A stretch of DNA of 64,000 nucleotides from Elusimicrobia bacterium HGW-Elusimicrobia-1 (GCA_002841695.1 PHAN01000002.1:90807-154806), one strand, 5' to 3'. Shown: positions 6,001-58,957, counted from the first letter of the stretch. Program-made: numbers and translations. Notes: generated from the letters alone by a model not told the origin.

Positions 6001-6298
6001 CCGCGCCGGCGCGCCGGAGTTTTCCTCGTCGGACGCATCCGTCACGCCGCGCGAAAAAGCGCCGGTCTATTTCAAAGTCGAAAATAATTTCTTCGACGAA
6101 AGATACGTCCGCGCGATAGAAATCGCCATACTGCGCCCTCACCCCGCCCCTCTCCCATCGAGGGAGAGGGAGTTTTTGCCGCATAGTTTCCTCTCCCCTT
6201 ATCAAAAGGGGGATGGCTGCAAATACCCCGTCAAACCTTCGGTTTGCCACCCCTTTAATAAAGGGGAATACAGCCGGGGTATTATTCCCCTCTTTTAG
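5..6298 (+). CDS. Giant secreted GH13-family alpha-amylase-like protein with long FN3 domain array (5' end lies upstream of window; last ~60 codons run into palindromic repeats)
   Basis: Uninterrupted 2097-codon ORF from window edge. GH13-like motifs: GGDFQGV...MGINMLWFAPV, GFRFD (region II), GEIPG (region III), MMENHDETR (region IV). Repeated FN3-type signatures YYYRVRAVDRSGNKS, YYYRIRAIDRRANIG, YYYKIVAIDDSGNTS. Confidence 0.8.
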   Translation: MINSVTVSAGDALWRDAISDQRSDNHSSTQLDISSVGISCDEYNLYMFVAFASTVAANFDGRNFIQIMLDNGLTSTERVFRGRGVGSEDSYVSGDTAWEYLCEIVTDNDVFRVEDSQFSNRNFGGYSEHNDNYFYEVAMPLSNLGGKERFLGKTVNFTVATFWNDNGVVGQWGAGSSNIVDVVTSSGTNTWNEVSDRVVDYYMAITLSTSGAITAVSGATANSVPPMTEPQPDASAPPSALDYMLYNIFVDAWRDGDPANNNPTDTNSYGGDFQGVMDSADYFNEMGINMLWFAPVHQFGGGIWGYNLDDAYQFMSRFGGRDKYIEMAKKVKNRNLKTMLDWVPGQVGGKDSPTGKKYPNYFQDEIFGYGLRQEFAEPRAYMVNNAVWWSSFTDGFRFDNPKFWDNGDGPGRYEFCRVLRFAVDRWNPELYMMGEIPGTVGNFNEYTGSLGPMIHGAIDMASGGYKDAWDHHICAWARPGDAQSRTTIGVRSGLDEQQVTWKNDLSINPVMMENHDETRLISRYRPGGANGEWQQRVAYMTAFLVGGPAKIFYGGEVGLEGPYGGGSSEKMDRNGNVRQMLFNRANEWPWIAVRDSIRRTLQAKANFPELRGDPKKGGRGWYTGGQYDDNVLVVARTWANPDRKSIVMINRSAGNVQMSSVGTGDNNTVYKDWLTDKNFTTNASGILQDNDNTDGDGNLNTFNVDSHNGRILIRGGYDWVNITGSVKDGAGNPVPGAVVDIDRKSHWTTTTDAGGNYSLSGDLRKVLTGNRTIRVWANGFGIVDISTNIVIAGGVNRTQNFTLTADNAPPQPPTNLSGRPRKNAAMIFWQPNTEGDIQSYIVYRSTVSIAAGSFPAPLVEIFSPYYYDNNFDGRINSDGKHVDLLENGATYYYRVRAVDRSGNKSALSNQIAIVPRPIKATFWVDTRDSGQSVASVDVEGDALAFGDTKPERNVRGWTQLFSNGDGTFQRTFDMDDSDFIEYKYVITTSGGGRIGEGDAGHLFNDPAGTNGAENRGEIYLDAIPNVEIRDEGDGTMLLPNVWRWYQDRAPRAPSGVGISAGPNILTTGWTKNAEPDLQYYTVQRSTWNSGFSGAVASVNIGKDQISYVDTNLLNGNTYYYRIRAIDRRANIGDWSSTIWAYPRAADTTAPVSPSGLAAYGSGTNGLGSVEVRWNANYEGDLAGYNIHRSTESEFAPVAANKLNIVLISPSQEPLYTDKNTTTGTQYYYKIVAIDDSGNTSNPSVQLSVKIIPVTFNVDMGNINPSNVQILGNTKPLDWSGTNSLTCPAASTYTITLGFVSGTTLWYRYAYNSASVEEQPFATSSSQYREYVIGYSTAVVSNDWEQNPDMVSGVKVYGGVNKAYLYWDANTTAEDIAGYNIYRSEPPSTTPTLKLNAGPTSYIQPYTVTGLDTGSTYYFSVKAVDSGSQVLESTAASVVPVFISSRVYVHFGIPFSVGQSSAPWGDADKIKMYLAVHNSTDTDLSVWNTSERANVTDGKMVMTASGDGTYRAMVPLAVGNRYNFTFFAQTTNNPPSGLNGNTEYYDTVPDTGSFIVSNSSTGISPPAGVSAVFAPFGITRDARRVLVLPSDIAAGSTMYVFANFGSSPTAPTYIQAVGGNNKVTLYWSAPYGSPWTYPSPEKTGNVPLGGGESMKAADVVAGGVYHIFVTTYNHGSFNSYTATVTLSGGTMNYTFTGLQNGVTYYYLMRSSDTFKGLVGNNFSVLSATVSAQPTSAAVPVSVRVNRGAHPLWKAVRKTIAFQEGTSVPAWDADGKSNITLTGKAVNMVAPADDATEQEFSANLIPGTSYNFILFAYSTFSIAGLETNTTYFDTVPNFGAGGMITSTSTISITGHGKALCGPAGPASDARRILYVPTDLPSGSTLYVYCNFASSPSAVYLSASVVSTFSVQLEWTPYGAWGTSGESLKAADVIAGGHYYVWRSSVSSAGPWNLWVSTSARNWIDADLNAPGDGLGLEAGRTYFYVVVSSDSYSGNFIPNMYRAGAPEFSSSDASVTPREKAPVYFKVENNFFDERYVRAIEIAILRPHPAPLPSREREFLPHSFLSPYQKGDGCKYPVKPSVCHPFNKGEYSRGIIPLF

Positions 6299-6370
6299 AG
6301 GGGTGTCCGAAGGACGAGGTGTTATTCCCCTTTTACAAAAGGGGTGTCCCGAAGGGACGGGGTATTTGAG
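6137..6370. repeat. Cluster of short CCCCTTT-N-AAAGGGG type hairpins (P1-related) overlapping the 3' end of the giant gene
   Basis: Successive inverted repeats: ccctctcccatcgagggagaggg, cacccctttaataaaggggaa, ttcccctcttttagaggggtg, ttccccttttacaaaaggggtg. Confidence 0.6.
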
Positions 6371-7635: not shown

Positions 7636-7720
7636 AAAATCTCCCCTAACCCCTCTTTTTCAAAGAGGGGGAATAAGGGAACAATCCCCCTTTATTAAAG
7701 GGGGATAAAGGGGGATTTTT
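7636..7720. repeat. P1 palindromic element (AAATCCCCCT...CCCCCTTTnAAAGGGGG...AGGGGGATTT)
   Basis: Terminal inverted repeat aaaatctcccct / agggggatttt enclosing two internal hairpins; same family at 39948, 40383, 50775, 58173. Confidence 0.7.
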
Positions 7721-7751: not shown

Positions 7752-8849
7752 ATGAAAAAATCGAAGACGTTTCTATCGGTGGCTCTTTTAGTCGTCGCGT
7801 TTGCGTCGGCGGGTAGGATTTGCGCCCAACTCCCCGCCGGCGCGGGCGCGTTCGCGCAGTGGGGGAATTTCCAGAAAAAAATAGCCCTCCAGCGCGGCGT
7901 CGGCGTAAGCGCATGGGAAGACCGAGGCGACATAAGCTACGAGCAGTACGGGATGTATGCCGCGACGATGTCTCCCGTCGGAGACGGCACGTATCAGATA
8001 AAATTTGATTTGTATCCGGGCGCGGAATATAATTTCGCGTTCTTCGCCGTTTCGACGACGCCTTTGGCCGGCGTCACGACAGGTCTCACTTATTTCGACG
8101 CCGTTCCGAATCACGGCTCGGACGCGGCTTTCATCGCCTCGACCTCGCCCGCGGCGCCGCTTGCTTCCGATACGCGCTCGGCGGAATACAGGTCCATAGG
8201 CGGCGACGCCCGTCGATACGTCGCAATACCGGATCTCGCGCAGGGCACGACGTTTTACGTTTTCAGCAATTGGGCTTCGACCCCATCCGCCCCGACGGAC
8301 CTTCGCGCCCGGCCCGGCGACTCCAAGGTTCATCTTACATGGGGCGCGCCCTACGGCTGGTGGGGCACGGGCTCCCAACAATACAAAGCCATTGATGTAA
8401 TCGCGGGGGGAGCGTATGTTATTTACCGCTCGTCGGTGGCGGCGGGCGGCCCATACGAAATAGTGGCCTCGACTCCCGGACATTGTTTCTCATGGACGGA
8501 TACGAACGTTCAGAACGGAGTGCGATATTATTACGCCGTCTCGTCGAGCGACGCTTACAAAGGCGACGCCGAGGGGGTTCTCGGCGATGTCAATTTATGC
8601 TCGGACGCGGCGTCGTCACAGACGCCGGGAGCATCTCCGGGTCAGGCGGTTCCGATAAGATTCAGAGTCGAAGGCATCGACTGGAAGGTGATAAAAGAGA
8701 AGGGTTATCTCGCGTGGCTCACGCCGAACGCGGCTTCGGATGGGGCGCCGCCGTGCCCGCCCGCAAGAATCCCCGCGCGGCTCGTCGAAGTAAAACTTTC
8801 GAAAACATTGAAAGACAGAATAAGTGATGCGATTAGATGGTTGTTGTAG
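7752..8849 (+). CDS. Secreted protein of the same module family (unknown function)
   Basis: Signal peptide MKKSKTFLSVALLVVAFASAGRICAQ; motifs GDGTYQIKFDLYPGAEYNFAFFA, TYFDAVPNHG, TTFYVFSNWAS, PIRFRVEG shared with 6448..7584 and C-terminus of 5..6298. Confidence 0.7.
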   Translation: MKKSKTFLSVALLVVAFASAGRICAQLPAGAGAFAQWGNFQKKIALQRGVGVSAWEDRGDISYEQYGMYAATMSPVGDGTYQIKFDLYPGAEYNFAFFAVSTTPLAGVTTGLTYFDAVPNHGSDAAFIASTSPAAPLASDTRSAEYRSIGGDARRYVAIPDLAQGTTFYVFSNWASTPSAPTDLRARPGDSKVHLTWGAPYGWWGTGSQQYKAIDVIAGGAYVIYRSSVAAGGPYEIVASTPGHCFSWTDTNVQNGVRYYYAVSSSDAYKGDAEGVLGDVNLCSDAASSQTPGASPGQAVPIRFRVEGIDWKVIKEKGYLAWLTPNAASDGAPPCPPARIPARLVEVKLSKTLKDRISDAIRWLL

Positions 8850-8906
8850 TGTAGGGGGCTTTATGTTCGTAACAAATTTACGTATTTACGCCCTGTAGTG
8901 TAGGGG

Positions 8907-9080
8907 CTTGTCCCCGTAGGCAAAAGGACTTGTCCCCGTAGGCAAAAGGACTTGTCTCCGTAGGCAAAAGGACTTGTCTCCGTAGGCAAAAGGGCTTGTC
9001 CCCGTAGGCAAAAGGGCTTGTCCCCGTAGGCAAAAGGACTTGTCTCCGTAGACAAAAGGGCTTGTCCCCGTAGACAAAAA
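8907..9080. repeat. Tandem repeat, 8 copies of a 22-bp unit (cttgtccccgtaggcaaaagga), ending at the RAYT start codon
   Basis: Eight head-to-tail units with few substitutions, no spacers; first unit overlaps REP-like gtagtgtaggggcttgtcccc. Confidence 0.85.
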
Positions 9081-9538
9081 TGGAACCACCAAAAAAAATC
9101 CGGCTGGAAAAAGAACTATATTCACAACCCGGAAGAATATATTTTGTTACTGTTAATACAAATTTTAAAAAAGGTTTTTTTATAGAGGACAACTTTAATC
9201 GCGAAATTATACAGTGTTTATTGACGGAGAGAAATAACAGATATAGTATTTTCGTATATTGTTTGATGCCTGACCATATTCATTTTTTAATTTCAACAAA
9301 TGCTGAAAATTATTCAATTACTGATTTTGTGAATAGATTTAAAGGATTGACAACAAGAATTGGTTGGAAATACGGTGTTGAAAAAGTTCTATGGCAAAGA
9401 AGATTTTACGATCATATATTAAGAAAGCAAGAAGATGCTAAAAAAATTGCGGAGTATATAGTTAGCAATCCTGTAAGAAAAGGTTTGGTTAAAAATTGGA
9501 AAGAATATCCATATTGTGGGTATATAGATGAATTTTAA
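9080..9538 (+). CDS. REP-associated tyrosine transposase (IS200/IS605 TnpA-like, HUH Y1 family)
   Basis: 152 aa; HUH motif in CLMPDHIHFLIS; conserved C-terminal tyrosine region AEYIVSNPVRKGLV; codon usage AT-rich relative to neighbours. Confidence 0.8.
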   Translation: MEPPKKIRLEKELYSQPGRIYFVTVNTNFKKGFFIEDNFNREIIQCLLTERNNRYSIFVYCLMPDHIHFLISTNAENYSITDFVNRFKGLTTRIGWKYGVEKVLWQRRFYDHILRKQEDAKKIAEYIVSNPVRKGLVKNWKEYPYCGYIDEF

Positions 9539-12215
9539 ATTACGCCCGTGTAGTGTAGGGATTTATGCCCGTAACAAATTTGCGTATTTACGCCCACAAG
9601 GGGCTACATTGCATACGTATTTACGCCCGCAAGGGGCTACACTACTGTTATTATTTATTTGCAATTTGCTTTATGCTCTTGAAATCGGAACTCCTGCGGG
9701 TGAGACGGGCGGCTTTGCGACGCAGCAGAAACATTTTTACGGCGACTATCTTTCGTCGGGCTCGCCTTCGGACTCCGTTTGGAGTTCGTCGGCGGCGATG
9801 ACACGCGAGGCGCTCGCCGACGGCACGACGATATACTTCGCGGACATTCCGGTAACGGCGGGCAACACCTTTTACTACTATTTTAAAACTCAATCGTCGG
9901 GCGAGCAAAAAACGCCGGTATACAGAACTATCTACGTCAGCAGTTCGAATCCCGGCGAAATTATCGTCGACGGAACGGCGTATCCGGCGGCGGGTCTCGT
10001 TGCGGCGGCTACGGTCTGGCACAACTTCTCGGACGCTCCGCCGCCTCCGGCCAATCTCACTTCTTTCTGGTCAGCCGCCAACGACTTCGTATCTCTTGAA
10101 TGGGACAACCCGCTTTTCGACGGAACCGCTGTTTTCGATCTTACGGGCGGAGGCGGTTATGAGATATGGCGCTCAAGCGTATCGTTTTCCGACGGTATGG
10201 CCGTGATATCTTCCGTCACGGCGATTTTAAGCCGCATGAGTTTTCCTGATTCGTCCGTCGAGGCGGGCGCGACTTATTATTACCGCGTCCGCGCCTACGA
10301 CGCGTATCTTCCGCCAATGCTTTCGTCTCCCGCGCAAACTTCGCCCGCATCGAAAAGAAATTACGTCACGGTTGCCCTCGAGGTCGACGTATTCGCGCTA
10401 TCGGGAGTAACCGGGGTTTCCGTTATCGGAGATTTCACCTCGCCGCCGTTTTACAAAGGCCGTCTGAGTATGGATTACGCCGGCGGCGGCAAATGGCGGC
10501 TCGAACACGCCGACGCTTCGCTTTACTCCGGAGCGCTCATCAAATACAAATATCTCGTCAACGGCGAACTTTATGAACCCGATCTGCCGCCTGCGCTCGG
10601 AGGGCCGTACAGAAATGTCGCGATAAAGGATGAGGGTTCGCGCAGAATGACTATTAAAGACGTCTGGTCGGTCTGGACTCCGACGGGAACGCCGTCGAAC
10701 CTGCCGCGGTTTATGACGGCTTTTTCCGCCGAGCCGTCCGCCGGCGCCGTCAAAATCACATGGGACTGCGACCCCTTTTCGACGGGCACTCTTCTGGGTT
10801 ACGCACTTGAGCGCTCGTCGTTCGCCGCCGGCGGTTATTCCGTAATATCTTCGCCGGATATCCTGGGCCCCGCGACATTCTACTACTCGGACGTCCTCGC
10901 CGACGGCTCGACGGCTTTCTACAGGATCGCCGCCGTATCCTCGTCGGGACAATGGTCGGAGTTCTCCGATGCCGTAAAGGCCAATCCTCCGTCCGTCGGG
11001 GAATCTCTGCCGCGATACAATCCCGCCGCCCAAGAGGTTTTCGCGGCGGGCGATTTTATTTGCGATATCGGTAATCTGACGGGTGAAGTCATACTTGCGT
11101 GGAATGCCGCGTCTCATGACGCGGCCTACGGCGCGGCGAGCGCATACATTGTCAAATACGCGACATTCCCGATAATCGGCGCCGATTCTTTTCATCGCGC
11201 AAAGACCGCCGGCGCGGCGCGCGGTTTGCCGTTGGGCGCGACGGGGCGTCTGACGACTTTGAACCTCGGCGGGGACTGCCCGGGTTTTTACTTTGCGGTC
11301 TGCGCGGTCTACGGCTCGTGGCACGTCGTGGGATTTTCAACTTCCGTCGTGGCGGTAGCCCCCAAGGCCTTCGACGCCAAGGATGGCGGCCTCGTCGTCA
11401 AAACGTTGCGTTTCGCGGGATCCTCGCCGGAGGCGCCGAGCGTGGCGGCGATGGAGTTTCCGCCGGGTGCGCTTCAACAGGGCGAATATCTCGGAGTCAT
11501 AAAAAATCTCGGGGAATTACGGCTCGACGGATCGGTCGCGGCCAAGATAGACGCGGCCAATTCACTCGCCTCGCGTGATGCCAGATTCGGCTATGTCGCG
11601 GATAACGAGAACCTTGCGTCGTCGAGCGTTTTCGCTTTCGATCTTTACGATTCGGCGAAAAACGATTACTTTAATCCCGTCGCCGGCAGAAGAGCGCGCA
11701 AAGACATAGTCGTCTCGCTGTCTTACGCAGGGCTGTCCATTGTGCCGGAGGAGTTGAAAGTCGCGCGCCTCAACGAAAAAAACGATTTCTGGCGGATACT
11801 GAAAGATATCAAACCCGATATAGACCGCGACGCCAAGCTCATAAAGTTCAAAACTAAGGAACTCTCGGTCTACGCACTCTTTCGCGCGCCGGCTCCCGCC
11901 GCCGATCTTTCGAACGTAGCGGTTTATCCGAACCCCTTCAAGCCGCACGACGGCTTACGCGAAACGGGCGACTATTCGACGGGAATCAGATTCACCAACC
12001 TCACACGGAACGCGGATATCAGGATTTATAATATAGCCGGCGAATTGGTCAGATACAAAGGGCTTGAAGCCGACGAGATCGGAGAGTGCCGCTGGGACGC
12101 CATGAACGACGACGGTGAACGCGTCGCAAGCGGCGTTTACATTTTCATTGCGAAAGATGAAAGCGTCAAGGTCGGCAAAAACCATTTCACAGGAAAAGTG
12201 GGAATTGTAAGATAA
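9528..12215 (+). CDS. Large FN3-containing surface protein with C-terminal FlgD-Ig/T9SS-like sorting domain (start codon uncertain; N-terminus encoded by REP sequence)
   Basis: 895-aa ORF; FN3 signature ATYYYRVRAYD; C-terminus AVYPNPFKP...IRIYNIAGELVRY...WDAMNDDGERVASGVYIFIAKD...GKVGIVR. Confidence 0.7.
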   Translation: MNFKLRPCSVGIYARNKFAYLRPQGATLHTYLRPQGATLLLLFICNLLYALEIGTPAGETGGFATQQKHFYGDYLSSGSPSDSVWSSSAAMTREALADGTTIYFADIPVTAGNTFYYYFKTQSSGEQKTPVYRTIYVSSSNPGEIIVDGTAYPAAGLVAAATVWHNFSDAPPPPANLTSFWSAANDFVSLEWDNPLFDGTAVFDLTGGGGYEIWRSSVSFSDGMAVISSVTAILSRMSFPDSSVEAGATYYYRVRAYDAYLPPMLSSPAQTSPASKRNYVTVALEVDVFALSGVTGVSVIGDFTSPPFYKGRLSMDYAGGGKWRLEHADASLYSGALIKYKYLVNGELYEPDLPPALGGPYRNVAIKDEGSRRMTIKDVWSVWTPTGTPSNLPRFMTAFSAEPSAGAVKITWDCDPFSTGTLLGYALERSSFAAGGYSVISSPDILGPATFYYSDVLADGSTAFYRIAAVSSSGQWSEFSDAVKANPPSVGESLPRYNPAAQEVFAAGDFICDIGNLTGEVILAWNAASHDAAYGAASAYIVKYATFPIIGADSFHRAKTAGAARGLPLGATGRLTTLNLGGDCPGFYFAVCAVYGSWHVVGFSTSVVAVAPKAFDAKDGGLVVKTLRFAGSSPEAPSVAAMEFPPGALQQGEYLGVIKNLGELRLDGSVAAKIDAANSLASRDARFGYVADNENLASSSVFAFDLYDSAKNDYFNPVAGRRARKDIVVSLSYAGLSIVPEELKVARLNEKNDFWRILKDIKPDIDRDAKLIKFKTKELSVYALFRAPAPAADLSNVAVYPNPFKPHDGLRETGDYSTGIRFTNLTRNADIRIYNIAGELVRYKGLEADEIGECRWDAMNDDGERVASGVYIFIAKDESVKVGKNHFTGKVGIVR

Positions 12216-12257: not shown

Positions 12258-13250
12258 ATGAGAAAATTGTGTCTTTCGACTAGTGTTTCGACGGCAACTC
12301 GCGGACGAGGACGGCCCCTGCGACGGATTGCCCTTGTCCTTGCCTTTACTATCCACTATACACTGACCACTAACCACTCTCTACACGCCGCCGGCACGAC
12401 ATCCGCGACTTTTCTTAAACTCGGTGTCGGGGCGAGACCGGTGGGGATGGCCTCGGCGTTCGCAGGCGTGGCCGACGACGTCAACTCCGTCGCATGGAAC
12501 CCTGCGGGGCTCGCCTCAGTCGACGCGAAAGAATTTTCGTTTATGCATCTTGAACATTTTCAGGACGTGCGCTACGATTCGCTGTGCTATGCTCATCCTA
12601 TGAAAAAAACGGTCGTCGCATTCGGCTTTGGCTATCTGTATACCGACGAGATAACAAGGACTTTCATAGACGACGATGTTTATGCGGGTTTTCGCGCGCA
12701 GGGAGATTACCGGCTCCAGGATAGGACGTTTTTTGTTGCGGCGGCAAGACGAATCTCCGATGATAAGGCCGTCGGAGCGCTCGTCAGGTGGCTTTCGGAG
12801 AGGATAGAAGATAATGAAGCGACGGGGCTCGCCGCCGACGTCGGATATCTTCATCTCGTGACGGACCGTCTCGCGTTCGGTTTGTCCGTCCAGAATATCG
12901 GCGGGACGATAAGATTCATCGCGGCCGACGAAATGCTGCCGCTGACTTTTCGCGCGGGCTTCGGATATGACGTTGTCGCCGGAAAACTCAAACTCGCGCT
13001 CGACTTCGTCAAGCCCGTCGACTATCAACTTTCGATCAATCTCGGCGCCGAGTACAGGGCGTTTGACGCGCTCGCCGTCAGAGGCGGATGGAGCTTCAAA
13101 GATTTGTTCTACGACGACCGGCTTAACGGAACATCCGGCGCGGCTCTGGGGATGGGGTTTTCTTTTCACAATTATTCTCTTGACTACGCTTTCGCGCCTT
13201 ATGGAGAGCTCGGTTATTCTCACAGAATATCGTTCGGGGGAAAGTTTTGA
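12258..13250 (+). CDS. Beta-barrel outer-membrane protein, PorV/PorQ- or PorP/SprF-like
   Basis: N-terminal motif LKLGVGARPVGMASAFAGVADDVNSVAWNPAGLA; alternating beta-strand-like pattern; C-terminal ...ISFGGKF (terminal Phe). Confidence 0.6.
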   Translation: MRKLCLSTSVSTATRGRGRPLRRIALVLAFTIHYTLTTNHSLHAAGTTSATFLKLGVGARPVGMASAFAGVADDVNSVAWNPAGLASVDAKEFSFMHLEHFQDVRYDSLCYAHPMKKTVVAFGFGYLYTDEITRTFIDDDVYAGFRAQGDYRLQDRTFFVAAARRISDDKAVGALVRWLSERIEDNEATGLAADVGYLHLVTDRLAFGLSVQNIGGTIRFIAADEMLPLTFRAGFGYDVVAGKLKLALDFVKPVDYQLSINLGAEYRAFDALAVRGGWSFKDLFYDDRLNGTSGAALGMGFSFHNYSLDYAFAPYGELGYSHRISFGGKF

Positions 13251-13254
13251 AAAA

Positions 13255-13425
13255 GCAGGGTTTAGAAAGACAGGGTTTAGGGCATAGGGTCTAGGGTTTA
13301 GTAAAATGAATAAAAAACAGAGTATAAAAAAGACAGGGTTTAGGGTTCAGGGTTTAGGGGTTAGGTTTTTTTTCTTTTTTCTTTTTTCTATTTTCTATCC
13401 CCTAACCCATAGACCCTATACCCTG
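13255..13425. repeat. Leader palindrome P3 built from GGGTTTAGGG-type units; contains start codon and signal-peptide coding region of 13306..15414
   Basis: cagggtttagggcatagggtctagggtttag ... cagggtttagggttcagggtttaggggttagg ... ctatcccctaacccatagaccctataccctg; near-identical copy at 22629-22772. Confidence 0.75.
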
Positions 13426-22628: not shown

Positions 22629-22772
22629 TTAGGGTCTAGGGTTTAGTAAAATGAATAAAAATATAGAAAAGACAGGGTTTAGAAAGGCAGGGTTTAGGGT
22701 TCAGGGTTTAGGGGTTAGGATTTTTGTTTTAATTTTTTTCTATACCCTAACCCCTAAACCCCATGCCCTGCT
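22629..22772. repeat. Leader palindrome P3 (second copy), overlapping start of 22651..23760
   Basis: gttagggtctagggtttagtaaaATG...cagggtttagggttcagggtttaggggttagg...ctataccctaacccctaaaccccatgccctg. Confidence 0.75.
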
Positions 22773-36465: not shown

Positions 36466-36545
36466 GTAGTGTAGCCCTTTATGGGCGTTTCTTTATGGGC
36501 GTTTCTTTATGGGCGTTTATTGACGGGGACAAGCCCCTACACTAC
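36466..36545. repeat. REP-family palindrome plus 3 tandem copies of ctttatgggcgttt
   Basis: gtagtgtagccctttatgggcgtttctttatgggcgtttctttatgggcgtttattgacggggacaagcccctacactac. Confidence 0.7.
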
Positions 36546-36572: not shown

Positions 36573-38960
36573 ATGAACCCAAAAACAAAAACATTTTTGG
36601 CGGCTGCTTTTTTTTGTGTATCGACGATATCCGGTTTATTCCCGCCGCCCGCGCACGCGCGAGGGCTTGAAACGCCCGTCATCGACGTCGAGGCGGGTTC
36701 CGTCGTCGAGATGCCGCTTGATTTGTTCGTCGGCGCGCCCGTCGCGTCGGGGCCGGCGGTTACCAATATATCCGGCGCGAAGTCCGTCCGCGTTTCCGTC
36801 GCGCCAAAAAGATCCGCCCTCGTCATTTCGGCGCCGGCGGGTTTTTCGGGCTTCGACGCTTTCGTCGTCTCGGCTTCCTCCGACGGCAAAACGACTTTTT
36901 CGCGCGCCGTGGCGGTGAGGGTGACAGCGCCGCGCCGGACTGTTTTGCGCTATAAACCGGCAAAATCCGTCAAATCCGTCGCCGCGGCGGGGGACTTTAA
37001 TTCGTGGAATCCTTCCGCCTCGCCCATGACGGGGCCCGACAAGAAAGGTTTCTACTCCATTGAGCTTAAACTCGCCGCCGGAGAGTACAATTATAAGTTC
37101 GTCGTCGACGGACAATGGCTCGCCGACACGGCCAACCCCGCATCCGTCCCCGACGGCTTCGGCGGAACGAACTCCGTTGTTTTCGTAGGCGCGCCGCCTA
37201 AGTCCGGCCGATGGCACAGCGTTGTCGTCGACGATACAACCGCGCGCGTCGCGTATATCGCCGGCAAAGCCGCGCCGTCTTTCGACGCCGCATCGCTGTT
37301 GCTCGTCTCCGGCGATAAAATCCTCGCCCGCGGAGGCGACTATTCCGTTGATGAAACGCGCGGCGAAATAGCGATTAAACTCGCATCCCTCGGTTCGCCG
37401 CCCGCCGACGTCATGATATTGGCCCGCGATAAATCGGGTGCGATACTGAGCGGCTTCGTCGCCCGCTTTCCGTCGGACGACGGATGGAACGGGCGGCTGA
37501 TGTACTTCGCCTTCACCGACAGATTTCACAGCGGCTCGGCCGCCAATGACCGGCCATCCGGCGACCCTGACGTTGCGCCGGCGGCGGATTTTCGCGGTGG
37601 CGATTTTGCCGGCATCACAGAAAAACTCCGCGACGGCTATTTTGAGCGGCTCGGCGTGGGAGCGCTGTGGATATCGCCTCACTTTAAGAATCCCGACCGG
37701 CCATATATCGACGCTCTTCCTCCGCATAGAAAGTTTACCGGCTATCACGGCTACTGGCCGGTTTCTTTCGACGAGACCGACCCGAGATTCGGGACTATTG
37801 AAGAACTCCGCGAACTCGTGGCCGCGGCCCATAAGCGCGGCATCAAAGTCATTCTCGATATGGTGTTAAACCACGCCCACGAGGAAAATCCCGTCTACAA
37901 GAAAAATCCCGGATGGTTTTCAAAAATTACTCTGGCCGACGGCCGCAAAAATATCCGTCTTTTCGACGAGCGTCCGCTCGACACGTGGTTCGACGACTTC
38001 CTGCCCGACTTTGCCTACGAAGGTAATCCCGCCGCCGTCGAATATATGGTCTCAAACTGCCTCGATTGGATCAAGAAAACAAACTGCGACGGCTTCCGCC
38101 TCGACGCCGTCAAGCACGTGCCTATGGTATTCTGGACGGAACTCCGCCGCCGCATCCGCCGCGACATCGAAATCCCGCGCGGAGAAATGTTTTACCTCGT
38201 AGGAGAAACCATCTCCGGACGCGAAAAAATAATGGAATACGTCGGCTTTGATAAACTCGACGGACAGTTTGATTTTCCGATATACTGGGCGATAAAAGAC
38301 GTCTTCGCCTGGCAAACTAAAGGTCTCGACTATCTCGAACGCGAGAGCGGGAAATCAGCTTTGCAGTACGTCGGATCCATTCCGAGCCCGCTTTTGGGCA
38401 ATCACGACTTTGCCCGTTTCAGCGCTTTCGCCGACGGCGCGATACCTCCCGGTTCCAACGAAAAAGCGCGCTCGTGGGACAATCGCCCCGAAGTCAAAAA
38501 CCGCTCTACCTATCAAAAACTCCGTATGGCTTTCGCTTTTCTTCTCTCTGAGCCGGGCGTTCCCATGATTTATTACGGCGACGAAATAGGCCTCTCGGGC
38601 GCGGGCGACCCCGACAACCGCCGAATGATGAAGTTCGACAAACTCTCAGGCGACGAGCGCGAAACCCTCCAATATGTCGGCGCGCTGGCCGCGTTCCGCC
38701 GTGCCTCCAAGGCGCTCCGTTTTGGCGAGCGCCACACGCTTGTGTCGTCGGAAAACACCCTCGTTTACCTCAAAAATTATTTCGGCGAAACTGCCGTCGT
38801 TGCAATCAACCGTTCGCCCCGCCCCGCCGAAGTCAGCGTTGAACTTCCGCCGTTTTTCAAAAACCCCGCGTCCTTTGAAGACGTAGTAAGCGGCAAAAAA
38901 ATCCAACTCAAAAAGTTGCGCATCCCCCCGATGAGCGCCGTCGTCCTTCGCGGCATCTGA
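36573..38960 (+). CDS. Secreted GH13 alpha-amylase-family enzyme with CBM48-like domain
   Basis: Start at ATG 36573 (after SD aggaagtaagagg) preferred over track start 36495; signal peptide MNPKTKTFLAAAFFCVSTISG; CBM48 AAAGDFNSWNP...GEYNYKFVVDGQW; GH13 regions VILDMVLNHAHE, GFRLDAVKHVP, FYLVGETISG, LGNHDFARF. Confidence 0.85.
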   Translation: MNPKTKTFLAAAFFCVSTISGLFPPPAHARGLETPVIDVEAGSVVEMPLDLFVGAPVASGPAVTNISGAKSVRVSVAPKRSALVISAPAGFSGFDAFVVSASSDGKTTFSRAVAVRVTAPRRTVLRYKPAKSVKSVAAAGDFNSWNPSASPMTGPDKKGFYSIELKLAAGEYNYKFVVDGQWLADTANPASVPDGFGGTNSVVFVGAPPKSGRWHSVVVDDTTARVAYIAGKAAPSFDAASLLLVSGDKILARGGDYSVDETRGEIAIKLASLGSPPADVMILARDKSGAILSGFVARFPSDDGWNGRLMYFAFTDRFHSGSAANDRPSGDPDVAPAADFRGGDFAGITEKLRDGYFERLGVGALWISPHFKNPDRPYIDALPPHRKFTGYHGYWPVSFDETDPRFGTIEELRELVAAAHKRGIKVILDMVLNHAHEENPVYKKNPGWFSKITLADGRKNIRLFDERPLDTWFDDFLPDFAYEGNPAAVEYMVSNCLDWIKKTNCDGFRLDAVKHVPMVFWTELRRRIRRDIEIPRGEMFYLVGETISGREKIMEYVGFDKLDGQFDFPIYWAIKDVFAWQTKGLDYLERESGKSALQYVGSIPSPLLGNHDFARFSAFADGAIPPGSNEKARSWDNRPEVKNRSTYQKLRMAFAFLLSEPGVPMIYYGDEIGLSGAGDPDNRRMMKFDKLSGDERETLQYVGALAAFRRASKALRFGERHTLVSSENTLVYLKNYFGETAVVAINRSPRPAEVSVELPPFFKNPASFEDVVSGKKIQLKKLRIPPMSAVVLRGI

Positions 38961-47803: not shown

Positions 47804-47912
47804 AGGGCAGTGGTTAGTGGCGAGTGGTTAGTGGATAGAAAGGGCAGTGGTTAGTTTTTTGTTTTTACTATCCACTATTCACTAACCACTCGCCACTATA
47901 CACTAGCCACTT
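47804..47912. repeat. P2 hairpin (agtggttagtggatag arms around T-rich loop), terminator-like, downstream of giant gene
   Basis: gggcagtggttagtggcgagtggttagtggatagaaagggcagtggttagttttttgtttttactatccactattcactaaccactcgccactata. Confidence 0.7.
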
Positions 47913-47932
47913 ACTTTTGATTGGAGGAAAAA

Positions 47933-48883
47933 ATGAAAAAATTCTCATCGACAGGGTCATTGTTTATTCTCTTGTTTATCGTTTTTACTATCCACTACCC
48001 ACTAACCACTAACCACTGTCTTTACGCCGCCGGTCTCTCGTCTCCCAACGCCTCGATGTATCTGGGTAACCTTAAAATCGGCCAGACGTATTCACTCAGA
48101 CAACTGCTGGGCTACCCATTCAAAGCCACCTACAAAGGACGCTCAATGGCCGACCTGTCCATAAGCGTGATCGCGCTGTCCACCGCGACATCCGACGGAT
48201 ACGAACCCATCCCGTCCAACGACTGGATAGAAATCGAACGCTCGCATTTCTCTCTCGATCCGGGCCAGACCGCCGAAACCGACATCCTCATAAAAATCCC
48301 CGACGACACCGCGCATCTTGACAAAAAATATATCGTCATAATACAGCCACAGTCGGGCGCGCCGCGCGCCAGCGGAGCGGGCATTGTTTTCGGCACGGCG
48401 CTCAGGTGCCAGTTGCGCCTCGACATAGCCGCGCTTCCTCCCACGCCGGACGAAATCCGGCAGTTACGGCGCCTTCGGCACGGACAGTCGGTCGGTGTGG
48501 TTGTGTCTCCGGAAAGAATTTTCGTAAACGAAATCGAGGCGGGAAAAAAGATAGACGTCAAAAAAACTTTCGGCGATGTTATAAAAATAGTGAACTCGTC
48601 GGATTTCGACGTAGAGGCCGTCATAGAGTCCGCCGACCCCGCCAAGTTCGGGATGTTCGCCCCGTCGGGTTATGAAACCGCCCCCGATCACAAATGGCTT
48701 GTGCCCGCAAAAAGAAAAATCAAGATTCAGAAAAACCGCATAGCCGAGGCGCCGGTTACCATAAACATTCCTTCCGGCCCGGAACACGAGGGGAAAAGCT
48801 ACTATTTCGCCATTGCCGTAACCGTCAAATCGCCCATAAGAGAAGTCAATCATCTGGTCAGATTCTTTGTGGATATGAAGTAG
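47933..48883 (+). CDS. Secreted protein A1 of duplicated two-gene cassette (unknown function)
   Basis: ATG 47933 with GGAGGA 5 nt upstream (track start 47921 is TTG); leader SLFILLFIVFTIHYPLTTNHCLYAA; paralogous to 51140..52039 (NLKIG, GYEPxP, HLxKKY, ISAPSGY shared). Confidence 0.7.
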   Translation: MKKFSSTGSLFILLFIVFTIHYPLTTNHCLYAAGLSSPNASMYLGNLKIGQTYSLRQLLGYPFKATYKGRSMADLSISVIALSTATSDGYEPIPSNDWIEIERSHFSLDPGQTAETDILIKIPDDTAHLDKKYIVIIQPQSGAPRASGAGIVFGTALRCQLRLDIAALPPTPDEIRQLRRLRHGQSVGVVVSPERIFVNEIEAGKKIDVKKTFGDVIKIVNSSDFDVEAVIESADPAKFGMFAPSGYETAPDHKWLVPAKRKIKIQKNRIAEAPVTINIPSGPEHEGKSYYFAIAVTVKSPIREVNHLVRFFVDMK

Positions 48884-48948: not shown

Positions 48949-49326
48949 ATGATAGGAGTTAGGAGTTATAAAGATTTAATAATCTGGCGAAAAAGTATGG
49001 AACTTGTAAAAATTGTGTACAAAGCGACCAGTAGTTTCCCGCAAAAAGAATTATTCGGATTGACAAATCAGATGAGAAGGGCAGCCGTATCGATACCTTC
49101 AAATATAGCGGAAGGGCAGGCCAGAAACCATACGAAAGAATTTGTGCAGTTTCTGTATCAGGCGTTGGGCTCCCTGGCGGAACTTGATACACAGGCAATA
49201 ATAGCCAAGGAACTGGGTTATCTAAAAGCAGTGGATAGTGGTGAGTGGATAGAAAGACAAACTGCCGAACTTCAAAAGATGACACACGGCCTACTCAAAA
49301 AACTAACCGCTATAGACAGTGGATAG
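48949..49326 (+). CDS. Four-helix-bundle protein (family formerly called 23S rRNA intervening-sequence protein)
   Basis: SYKDLIIWRKSMELVKIVYK...FGLTNQMRRAAVSIPSNIAEGQAR...ELDTQAIIAKELGYL; AT-rich; start at ATG 48949 after GGGGGG SD preferred over 48928. Confidence 0.8.
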   Translation: MIGVRSYKDLIIWRKSMELVKIVYKATSSFPQKELFGLTNQMRRAAVSIPSNIAEGQARNHTKEFVQFLYQALGSLAELDTQAIIAKELGYLKAVDSGEWIERQTAELQKMTHGLLKKLTAIDSG

Positions 49327-49410
49327 TGGCGAGTGGTTAGTGGATAGAAAGGGCAGTGGTTAGTTTTTTGTTTTTACTATCCACTATTCACTAACCACTA
49401 ACCACTGCCC
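49318..49410. repeat. P2 hairpin, terminator-like
   Basis: gggcagtggttagttttttgtttttactatccactattcactaaccactaaccactgccc (13-bp perfect outer stem). Confidence 0.7.
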
Positions 49411-52042: not shown

Positions 52043-52162
52043 AAAGTGGGTAGTGGATAGTGACGAGTGGTTATGGGTAGTGGATAGTGGCGAGTGGTTA
52101 GTGGATAGAAAGGGCAGTGGTTAGTTTTTTGTTTTTACTATCCACTAATCACTATCCACTCT
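52043..52162. repeat. P2 hairpin cluster, terminator-like
   Basis: agtgggtagtggatagtgacgagtggttatgggtagtggatagtggcgagtggttagtggatagaaagggcagtggttagttttttgtttttactatccactaatcactatccact. Confidence 0.7.
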
Positions 52163-56119: not shown

Positions 56120-56162
56120 AGATAAAGAAGTGAATAGTGATTAGTGGATAGTAAAAGAAAAA

Positions 56163-56436: not shown

Positions 56437-58074
56437 ATGAATACACTTATTAAAATCATCAAAAAATTTCCGCCGCCGTCGTCATTGTTTATTCTCTTGT
56501 TTATCGTTTTTACTATTCACTATTCACTATCCACTATTCACCCTCTTTACGCCGCATTCGAGGATATTTCCGTCGGCGGACGTCCCGCGGCTTTTTCCGG
56601 CGCGTATACAGCGGTCGAAGGCGACGCGTATTCCATCTACTACAATCCCGCGGCGCTTGCGGGTATGGCAAGGGCCGAGTTCGGCGCGCAATATTCCAAA
56701 CTTCATACGGGGCTTACGGACGGTTCGGAACTCTCCAACGCTTTTTTCGGCGTGGCGCAGCCGCTTAAATTCGGCTCGGCCGATTACGGCACAATCGGCG
56801 CGGGATGGATAAGATTCGACCTTGCGGAACTTTATCAGGAAAATACTATAATCTTGTCCTGGGCGCGTGACATTGTAAAGAACAAACTTTCCTTCGGATT
56901 CGGCGCCAAAATGCTCTCTATTACCTACGGCGAAAACGACTACACCAAAAACGCCTTCGACAACGAGGGCAACACGACCGGCGCGGCGGACCCGCTTTTC
57001 AACTATGGCTATATCAAATCCGCCGCCGACTTCGACGCCGGAATAAGATACGCTTTCGCCAAAAATTACGCCGTGGCCGCCGTCGCGCAGAATCTGGCGG
57101 GCGCAAATATATCGCTCGTCAACGACCCCAATGTCGCGCTGCCGCGTCGTTACCGTTTCGGCCTTGCTCACACCGGCAAGGCCTACGCGCTTTCGGCCGA
57201 TGTCGCGGGCGCTTCGGACTCTTCGGTAGTGCGCGGAATGGTCGGCGTCGAAAAAAGTTTCGACTTCGGTGGCGCCCTGAGGGCCGGGCTGGGAATGGGC
57301 ACCGACGGATGGGCCAATATCGCCGGCGGTTTCGGATTCAAAGCCGACGCCCTCAGCTTCGATTACGGCCTCGCATGGCCGTTGTCGGGCATAAAGAACA
57401 CTTCAGGCAGTCACAGGGTCTCGGTGAATTTCAAATTCGGGCCCGTTATGCGCCACCCCGAATCCGACTCGGAAACGCAGGTGCGCCTGGCGCAGGAAAT
57501 TACCGCCCGCAAAGAGTACGAGCAGAAATACAGGGTGTCCGAGATAGAACTCGCCCGCGCTAGAGAAGAGATAAGACAGCTCAAAAATCAGATAGAGGAA
57601 TTGCTCAAGCGTCCGTCGGCTCCCATACCGGCGCCAAGAGAAATCGCGTCGCCCAAGCCGACGGTTACGGAGACGCCCGCGGCCGTCAAACCCGGCGTAA
57701 CGCCGGCCGCGCCCGCTATGCCCACCGATATCGACGCTTTGAGAGCCGCTTATGCCAAAGAATTCAACCAGTATCAGCGCGACGCTTCCAAAATGGATAT
57801 TAAGCAGCGCATCGCGGCGGTTGACGTCATAGTCGCGCGTTATCAGGGCAAGATAAAGATAACCGAAGCCGTCGACGAACAGATGATACTCAGGAATGAA
57901 TTCGCCGCGCAGACCAAGTTCTATAACGACGCGCTTACTTACTACAAACGTCTCGTACGGCAGGGTATATCCGTCGAGGAGCGCAAGGACATACTCAATC
58001 GCATGATAACCAAGTACCAGGTGCTCGGCGTCGATGTAACTGTCGCCAAAGAGGAGCTTAAGACGGTAAAATAA
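56437..58074 (+). CDS. Beta-barrel OMP (PorV/PorQ- or PorP/SprF-like) with C-terminal coiled-coil/Pro-rich extension
   Basis: ATG 56437 after aaaggag (track start 56269 lies in repeat); leader SLFILLFIVFTIHYSLSTIHPLYAA; motif GRPAAFSGAYTAVEGDAYSIYYNPAALAG; C-terminal EIELARAREEIRQLKNQIEELLKRPSAPIPAP. Confidence 0.6.
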   Translation: MNTLIKIIKKFPPPSSLFILLFIVFTIHYSLSTIHPLYAAFEDISVGGRPAAFSGAYTAVEGDAYSIYYNPAALAGMARAEFGAQYSKLHTGLTDGSELSNAFFGVAQPLKFGSADYGTIGAGWIRFDLAELYQENTIILSWARDIVKNKLSFGFGAKMLSITYGENDYTKNAFDNEGNTTGAADPLFNYGYIKSAADFDAGIRYAFAKNYAVAAVAQNLAGANISLVNDPNVALPRRYRFGLAHTGKAYALSADVAGASDSSVVRGMVGVEKSFDFGGALRAGLGMGTDGWANIAGGFGFKADALSFDYGLAWPLSGIKNTSGSHRVSVNFKFGPVMRHPESDSETQVRLAQEITARKEYEQKYRVSEIELARAREEIRQLKNQIEELLKRPSAPIPAPREIASPKPTVTETPAAVKPGVTPAAPAMPTDIDALRAAYAKEFNQYQRDASKMDIKQRIAAVDVIVARYQGKIKITEAVDEQMILRNEFAAQTKFYNDALTYYKRLVRQGISVEERKDILNRMITKYQVLGVDVTVAKEELKTVK

Positions 58075-58705: not shown

Positions 58706-58957
58706 AAAGTGATTAGTGGCGAGTGGTTAGTGGTTAGTAAAAGAAAAAGCAAAATGTCATTCCCGCGCCGCGCCGTAGGCGATGCTCCGCAAATGCGGGG
58801 CTGTGGGAACGCGGAAATCCAGAGCAATTAAATAGAGTCAAGAAGCGAGAGTCAAGATAAATCGTCATTCTGAGCGCAGCGAAGAATCCCCGTCATATTC
58901 CGGCGGGGAATCCTCGCCATACTCTAAGAGGATCCTTCGCTTCGCTCAGGATGACAG
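58706..58957. repeat. Composite repeat: P2 arm, gtcattcccgcg palindrome, and gtcattctgagcg...cgctcaggatgaca palindrome
   Basis: agtgattagtggcgagtggttagtggttagt; gtcattcccgcgccg...ggaacgcggaaatccagag; gtcattctgagcgcagcgaagaatcc...ggatccttcgcttcgctcaggatgacag. Confidence 0.7.

Follow-up and report, generated by a model that had tools for sequence, protein, structure and literature searches.

A tandem array derived from a repetitive extragenic palindrome abuts the start codon of a REP-associated tyrosine transposase gene in an uncultured Elusimicrobia lineage

Results

The locus and its features

In a 64,000-nt stretch of Elusimicrobia bacterium HGW-Elusimicrobia-1 (GCA_002841695.1, PHAN01000002.1:90807-154806; this whole stretch is called the window, and positions are counted from its first nucleotide), a gene for a REP-associated tyrosine transposase (RAYT) lies among copies of a repetitive extragenic palindrome (REP). 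Its start codon is directly preceded by a 22-bp tandem array whose units derive from one of these palindromes. An original prediction, made from the sequence alone, had drawn attention to this arrangement. The features of the locus, together with a distant REP doublet, are:

8846-8872, + strand: forward REP-a, GTAGTGTAG followed by a degenerate stem-loop GGGGCTTTATGTTC and GTAA
8886-8893, + strand: stub TTACGCCC, the start of a reverse REP arm, interrupted by the next forward REP
8895-8919, + strand: forward REP-b, GTAGTGTAG-GGGCTTGTCCCC-GTAG, the only complete REP on the left side
8907-9079, + strand: 22-bp tandem array, 7.9 copies (8904-9079 when taken as eight units in hairpin phase)
9080-9538, + strand: RAYT, a TnpA_REP-like HUH/Y1 enzyme of 152 residues, assigned by profile, alignment and structure model
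9550-9574, + strand: forward REP-a', GTAGTGTAG-GGATTTATGCCC-GTAA
9588-9612, - strand: reverse REP with degenerate core, TTAC-GCCCACAAGGGGC-TACATTGC
9621-9645, - strand: reverse REP, TTAC-GCCCGCAAGGGGC-TACACTAC, the inverted partner of REP-b
36466-36545: inverted doublet resembling a REPIN (REP doublet forming a hairpin), GTAGTGTAG-CCCTTTATGGGC ... GGGGACAAGCCCC-TACACTAC, the one REP locus of the 64 kb outside the RAYT region

The open reading frame (ORF) at 9080-9538, which corresponds to the NCBI hypothetical protein CVU77_01350 of the same bacterium, is a genuine RAYT. It scores 111.8 bits with the NCBIfam model NF047646 (REP_Tyr_transpos, 'REP-associated tyrosine transposase'; cut-off 80) and 42.8 bits with Pfam Y1_Tnp (cut-off 23), and reaches 26.4 bits with NF033573 (transpos_IS200), under the cut-off of 55. 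The best solved relative by sequence is the TnpA_REP of E. coli (4ER8, E 2.5e-11). The same structure heads the comparison of the AlphaFold model (pLDDT 89.5, pTM 0.83) with the PDB (E 1.4e-9, TM 0.71), followed by the IS200, IS608 and ISDra2 transposases. The HUH motif H66-I-H68 and the catalytic Tyr126 are invariant in an alignment of ten homologues, and the homologues begin at the same conserved K-K-I-R-L motif. The original prediction had named a failing profile search, or the lack of an HUH/Y1 fold, as what would overturn it; profile and fold both came out in its favour. The exact protein is present on five contigs in one genomic context only, and within the window the gene is single-copy.

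In base composition the gene stands apart from its surroundings. With a GC content of 28.5% versus 53.7 ± 4.8% (mean and standard deviation) for the window, the ORF is the lowest 459-nt stretch of the window, and its GC content at third codon positions is 20% versus 66% in both neighbouring genes. The AT-rich island extends from about 8846 to about 9690. Since the RAYTs of two other loci (L075, L198) likewise have a lower GC content than their hosts, the composition suggests a horizontal acquisition of this RAYT clade. The low GC content and the small number of REPs in the window would fit a recent horizontal arrival followed by local REP multiplication.

REPs around the RAYT gene

Exact GTAGTGTAG cores are found at 8846, 8895, 9550 and 36466 on the + strand and at 9645 and 36545 on the - strand, with a degenerate copy at 9604-9612. 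The REP takes the form of GTAGTGTAG, a short GC stem-loop and GTAA or GTAG, and all full copies carry the GTAG tag, as GTAGTGTAG combined with GGGGCTTGTCCCC, CCCCTTGCGGG or CCCTTTATGGG. The RAYT ORF is bracketed by inverted REPs, forward ones at 8846 and 8895 upstream and reverse ones at 9612 and 9645 downstream, and arm 8895-8910 is complementary to arm 9630-9645 at 81%. An ORF enclosed by inverted REPs is the arrangement that defines RAYT genes (PMC2817692), and the same layout surrounds the RAYT in the homologous loci L070, L074, L097, L127 and L172. In addition, REP-a' and the reverse REP at 9588-9612 form a REPIN-like doublet, and 8856-8893 is a direct repeat (89%) of 9558-9595.

Dispersal within the 64 kb is limited to the inverted doublet at 36466-36545, whose right arm repeats the REP at 8895 exactly, in reverse complement. 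The original prediction had placed this reverse complement at 36520-36542; it is indeed present once more in the window, but the 21-mer lies at 36525-36545, an offset of 3-5 nt. The left arm of the doublet holds a perfect tandem array of its own, CTTTATGGGCGTTT x3 (36477-36518), which begins inside the stem and not at the REP boundary. The doublet adjoins, on the upstream side, a gene that likely starts at an ATG near 36574.

An array of eight REP-derived units

Tandem Repeats Finder reports the array at 8907-9079 with a period of 22, 7.9 copies, 94% matches, a score of 290 and the consensus CTTGTCCCCGTAGGCAAAAGGA; the 22-mer has seven matches at up to 3 mismatches, compared to none in 100 shuffles. 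The last base of the array is 9079 and the ATG of the RAYT gene occupies 9080-9082, so that the array abuts the start codon exactly, as had been predicted. Counted from just after the REP tag, the units are:

Unit 1, start 8904: GGGCTTGTCCCCGTAGGCAAAA
Unit 2, start 8926: GGACTTGTCCCCGTAGGCAAAA
Unit 3, start 8948: GGACTTGTCTCCGTAGGCAAAA
Unit 4, start 8970: GGACTTGTCTCCGTAGGCAAAA
Unit 5, start 8992: GGGCTTGTCCCCGTAGGCAAAA
Unit 6, start 9014: GGGCTTGTCCCCGTAGGCAAAA
Unit 7, start 9036: GGACTTGTCTCCGTAGACAAAA
Unit 8, start 9058: GGGCTTGTCCCCGTAGACAAAA

In this phase the unit reads GG[G/A]CTTGTC[C/T]CC-GTAG[G/A]CAAAA, and each unit consists of the REP stem-loop, with 3 pairs kept, and a 10-nt tail (GTAG[G/A]CAAAA), which in the last unit reaches straight to the ATG. 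Unit 1 is the stem-loop of the complete REP at 8895-8919 (GTAGTGTAGGGGCTTGTCCCCGTAG). This REP-b, identical to a widespread metagenomic REP arm, is the founder of the array. The first unit thus belongs to a REP-like palindrome, and the repeat is an amplified REP derivative made of stem-loop and 3' tail up to the start codon; on both points the original prediction was right, although 'REP half-site' is not a precise term for the unit.

Of the units, only the first belongs to a complete REP (8895-8919). Units 2-8 retain a stem of just 3 pairs, with the GTAG 6 nt upstream of it, and have lost both the TA/TA pairs of the lower stem and the bulged G; these internal units are degenerate REPs and probably poor RAYT substrates. 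The array folds no more stably than shuffled sequence (z +1.58 as DNA, -0.11 as RNA), which is consistent with internal units that are not full REPs, and a search of Rfam gave no match at E<=1. On these grounds a structured RNA or DNA element was rejected.

Two coding interpretations were also discarded. An N-terminal extension of the RAYT through the array is excluded by TAG stops in all three frames of the + strand, by the in-frame TAG at 9071-9073 and by the common KKIRL start of the homologues. On the minus strand, the ORFs 8861-9055, 8878-9192 and 8886-9125 are open in three frames merely because CTAC carries no stop; one of them overlaps the N-terminus of the RAYT, and the 44-nt indel described below is not a multiple of 3.

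Copy-number variation between populations

The array is real and hypervariable. The longest exact repeat inside it is 36 nt, so that it can be resolved by ordinary reads and by k-mers of more than 36, and the JGI contig Ga0246092_1000468 (L001) contains the identical eight units in the same variant order. As L001 stops 1 kb downstream of the gene, it cannot be the source contig of the window itself. The assembly GCA_017973855.1 (L002), by comparison, has six units. It differs from the window by a 44-nt indel and 2 substitutions inside the array, with 0 mismatches in 1000 nt upstream and 900 nt downstream; change is thus much faster in the array than around it. The length polymorphism that the original prediction had considered possible thus exists. 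A 21-mer specific to the array occurs in the three assemblies of this population and nowhere else in the 198 loci fetched.

An assembly artefact, affecting either the array or its copy number, might be suspected because a Logan contig built with k=31 stops inside the array, as expected for such a short k, and because the difference between six and eight units comes from short-read metagenome assemblies. This explanation, which the original prediction had raised as a possible objection, is very improbable: besides the short internal repeat, two different contigs agree on eight units in the same order, a collapse would not create the substitutions seen in L002, and analogous arrays are present in many independent assemblies.

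Related loci and the REP family

The closest RAYT (P0002) is 68% identical. Among the loci with a RAYT at this level of identity, L070, from one metagenome, has a single REP 22 nt before the ATG and a 24-nt unit ('hairpin plus tail') that is present once, while in L073, from another metagenome, this 24-nt unit (AGGGCTTTATGCCCGTATCACAAG) is exactly duplicated at the same position as the window array; the duplication in L073 is independent of that array. Behind the stop codon of the 68% sister RAYT follow five head-to-tail reverse REPs. In a 63% relative the REPs abut both gene ends and there is no array. Three further RAYTs (50-55% identity), found among the metagenome loci described below, are preceded, close to the ATG, by two or three REP units or tag-less hairpin units in tandem.

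The REP family is widespread in metagenomes. A metagenome scan with GTAGTGTAGGGRCTTGTCC matched at least 120 stretches (loci L076-L195), and among the matches listed the same 19-mer stands mostly in inverted doublets, with GTAGTGTAG-GGGCTTGTCCCC-GTAA...TTAC-GCCCATAAAGGGC-TACACTAC as the REPIN form. In the 120 metagenome matches listed, the density of tandem repeats within 60 nt of a REP core is 12.7 times that found elsewhere (1.80 vs 0.14 per kb), and head-to-tail REP arrays occur with periods of 25-42 and up to 5.9 copies. Distant RAYT loci in reference genomes show the same tendency: an array (period >=15, score >=100) lies within 200 nt of the ORF in 19 of 66 loci, compared to an expectation of 0.014 per locus.

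The conservation of the REP sequence across divergent enzymes is unusually strong. The 21-mer GTAGTGTAGGGGCTTGTCCCC is kept exactly beside RAYTs of just 50-63% identity (L074, L097, L127, L172) and also in the metagenome loci, and the GC content of the hosts, where measured (L070, L075, L198), ranges from about 34% to 58%. At L076-L195, microsatellites of 7 and 14 nt (AATTTGA, TTTTTGA, GTAATTT) abut the REP or fill the spacer of the doublet (e.g., L099 13988-14014, L190 1633-1684, L101 1822-1856).

Arrays of this kind have also entered protein annotations. For two RAYTs from metagenome-assembled genomes, P0007 (L196 1501-1790) and P0006 (L197 1501-1760), the NCBI annotation adds N-terminal extensions of about 90 residues, which are translated REPIN clusters (repeats of VGTGFIPVRN..GQPQGLSL); these clusters differ in copy number between the two genomes.

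The leader of the RAYT gene

No Shine-Dalgarno motif precedes the ATG of the RAYT, nor is there a sigma-70-like promoter placed to drive the gene. A promoter within the array was considered and rejected, as the sole sigma-70-like match (9071-9099) runs across the start codon. Lacking a suitably placed promoter-like site, the gene is probably transcribed by read-through from the upstream gene, and it is probably poorly translated.

These findings bear on the idea that the array is functional, either as a contingency-type variable repeat or because its place in the 5' leader supplies decoy or autoregulatory binding sites. RAYT expression would then be adjusted through the length of the leader, the loss of the Shine-Dalgarno motif or titration of the enzyme. 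The position directly before the start codon and the missing motif would fit, given that such a motif is present in the sister RAYT (AAGGAG) and in many genes of the window (GGAGG type), as would a copy number that differs between populations with identical flanks and a possible stem pair that is preserved in 7 of the 8 units through co-variation of G-C to A-T. However, the closest relatives have one or two units or none, and among the 198 loci fetched the array-specific 21-mer is confined to this one population. Promoter-like sites in position, excess structure and a match to an RNA family are all absent from the array, and its internal units do not have the stem-adjacent GTAG and the intact stem that REP recognition needs in the systems studied (PMC8266576). 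We consider such a function quite unlikely.

Neighbouring genes and other repeats

On both sides the REPs touch the adjacent genes. The TAG stop (8847-8849) of the upstream gene (7752-8849) is part of the GTAG of REP-a. The downstream gene encodes an 895-residue FlgD_ig/CHU_C protein, whose hydrophobic signal segment LLLLFICNLLYA (9639-9678) aligns opposite those of two upstream paralogues; its 37 N-terminal residues have no counterpart in either of them. The only in-frame starts are an ATG at 9528, inside the 3' end of the RAYT gene, and a TTG at 9609, which follows AAGGGG and lies within the reverse REP 9588-9612.

According to the original prediction, the downstream REPs form the 5' coding end of this surface-protein gene. 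The signal segment does begin inside the last REP (9621-9645), with the REP core encoding its first residues. That the 3' end of the RAYT gene together with the REPs would encode the first 37 residues and the start of the signal segment is plausible, judging from the reading frame and the alignment. L070 has the same layout of REPs and coding end with a different downstream protein.

A syntenic position shared with the sister RAYT was tested and rejected: the upstream proteins are unrelated, and the downstream ones have in common only the C-terminal FlgD_ig/CHU_C domain and the putatively REP-encoded N-terminus. As the neighbours are mostly unrelated, a vertically inherited syntenic position is not supported.

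Other repeats are present in the window. The spacers between the paralogous surface-protein genes (6278-6366 and 7640-7720) contain other short GC-rich palindromes and repeats, including a 40-nt unit x2.1, CCCCTCTTTTTCAAAGAGGGGG, and TAAAGGGGGA x2; the palindromes are probably terminators. Many intergenic regions contain a second family of repeats, arrays of 7-nt units that are not related to the REPs by sequence (12348-12378, 47809-48017, 49318-49406, 52045-52160, 56129-56152, 56512-56541, 58708-58738 and also 13244-13396 and 22668-22761). Several of these are inverted pairs about a T-rich centre, such as (AGTGGTT/AGTGGAT)n ... (ACTAACC/ACTATCC)n or (AGGGTTT)n ... (CTAAACC)n, which would give long imperfect hairpins.

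Discussion

Origin of the array

Our data are best explained by a REPtron that carries a REP-derived minisatellite, the array being a by-product of local REP amplification that expands and contracts by slippage or unequal recombination; we put the probability of this explanation at roughly 70%. In this REPtron the RAYT gene lies among the GTAG-tagged REPs cognate to it, which are oriented forward on its upstream side and in reverse on its downstream side. In the simplest history, the array would have started from an ancestral GTAGTGTAG-GGGCTTGTCCCC-GTAGACAAAA-ATG. The 22 nt between tag and start codon, comprising the stem-loop and the 10-nt tail, would then have been duplicated repeatedly in tandem, and later gains and losses may have come from slipped-strand mispairing or unequal recombination between units. 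The net effect would be about 154 nt inserted between the intact REP and the start codon of the RAYT. REPs are known to multiply preferentially around rayt genes, especially once these are horizontally acquired (PMC2817692, PMC8266576), and clusters of REPs beside RAYTs often consist of tandem copies in which flanking DNA is reiterated as well (PMC3733652, PMC3116915). In this context, the array would be a by-product of the REP multiplication typical around RAYT genes, probably after the horizontal arrival of the AT-rich cassette, and it may at most modestly dampen or vary RAYT expression. A dedicated function is judged unlikely, because close relatives do without an array.

Several observations nevertheless weigh against this explanation. 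The two cleanest young duplications (the 24-mer x2.00 in L073 and a 26-mer x2.00 in L125) lack microhomology at their boundaries, an outcome that simple slippage does not usually give and that would allow a first step mediated by an enzyme. The co-variation of the G/A and C/T positions, which keeps a base pair in seven of the eight units, hints at selection on the hairpin, yet it is not significant (about 4/56 in a permutation counted by hand, with units that are not independent). Copy number could also be under selection, and the polymorphism is based on metagenome assemblies and not on reads.

The lack of microhomology would fit an array made by the RAYT itself. The enzyme would repeatedly cleave and transfer strands at fixed positions, beside the GTAG/hairpin junction and about 10 nt 3' of the hairpin, and in this way join a REP-proximal segment head to tail; the unit boundaries would be the footprint of the cut sites. 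TnpA_REP enzymes bind single-stranded REP hairpins via the GTAG tag and, in vitro, cut and rejoin single-stranded REP DNA at CT/CA sites 5' and 3' of the stem-loop (PMC8266576). On the left, the units are bounded by the GTAG/stem junction in two lineages, that of the window and that of the independent L073 duplication, the L125 duplication spans exactly one REP, from GTAG to GTAAT, and the preference of REP copies for the vicinity of rayt genes (PMC2817692) points in the same direction. However, the dinucleotides at the junctions differ (A-G or A-A in the window, G-A in L073, T-G in L125), so that the cases share no cut site, and the start of the 14-mer array at 36477-36518 falls within a stem. 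Furthermore, the clean cases are just two, and from two copies on slippage suffices: the 44-nt indel corresponds to whole units and involves existing unit variants. Taken together, we regard an enzyme-made array as doubtful.

More doubtful still is an extended version, in which the RAYT acts in cis, joins truncated REPs head to tail at its own cleavage sites and produces a hypervariable leader that in turn sets the RAYT level in a self-throttling manner. If true, the cut sites of an uncharacterised RAYT clade could be predicted from the unit boundaries, which lie between GT and AG or directly after GTAG on the left side and about 10 nt beyond the stem on the right side.

Comparison with known systems

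With the REPtron systems described so far (E. coli yafM TnpA_REP with its REP/BIME (bacterial interspersed mosaic element) repeats, Stenotrophomonas, Marinomonas; 4ER8; PMC2817692, PMC8266576), the locus shares the small HUH/Y1 enzyme with invariant HUH and Tyr, the tight bracketing of the ORF by inverted REPs, the concentration of extra REP copies beside the gene, and the GTAG tag followed by a short GC-rich stem-loop, which in the window has a bulged G on the 3' side. It differs in its host, an uncultured Elusimicrobia lineage, in a tag that is the doubled GTAGTGTAG with a stem of just 4-6 pairs, in the strong low-GC island formed by the gene (28.5% vs 54%) and in the sparseness of REPs, with one other locus only in 64 kb.

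Tandem REP clusters beside RAYTs have already been published, and the window array is a further example of what is a common feature of RAYT loci. In P. fluorescens SBW25, tandem REPIN clusters lie beside each RAYT (PMC3116915), and ordered tandem repeats of GTAG REPs together with their flanking DNA are likewise described next to RAYTs (PMC3733652). For the same clusters it is also recorded that REPs overlap or abut the RAYT ORF at its 5' or 3' end, as is the case here. In contrast to these, the window unit is shorter than a whole REP (22 bp, stem-loop and tail without a full tag) and the array reaches exactly to the start codon. Its eight copies compare to at most 5.9 in the 120 loci of the family among the matches listed.

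The IS200/IS605 elements (IS608, ISDra2) have the same catalytic fold, subterminal hairpins with a 5' guide tetranucleotide and a single-strand DNA chemistry. In contrast, the RAYT stays below the NCBIfam IS200 cut-off, the hairpins of the window are inverted REPs that are also found elsewhere without the gene, and the locus has neither defined left and right ends nor TnpB. Contingency loci of Neisseria and Haemophilus contain promoter- or leader-proximal tandem repeats of variable number. Shared with these loci are a short non-coding repeat directly before the start codon and a copy number that varies between otherwise identical sequences. However, the unit in the window derives from the hairpin of a mobile element, there is no phase-variable surface phenotype, and an effect of copy number on expression would be modest at most.

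Implications

The locus leaves the current view of REP-RAYT biology unchanged. It has practical consequences for annotation, as such arrays break short-k assemblies, lead to RAYTs with falsely translated N-terminal extensions (P0006, P0007) and obscure where the adjacent genes start and stop. In the titles and abstracts returned by a literature search, we found nothing on REP-RAYT systems in Elusimicrobia. The locus extends these systems to an uncultured lineage of this group, with an associated REP family that is widespread in sediment and groundwater metagenomes. With six versus eight units between identical flanks and a parallel event in the sister lineage, it represents a compact natural case of a REP amplified beside its enzyme and is therefore a convenient substrate for deciding whether local REP multiplication is driven by the enzyme or by slippage.

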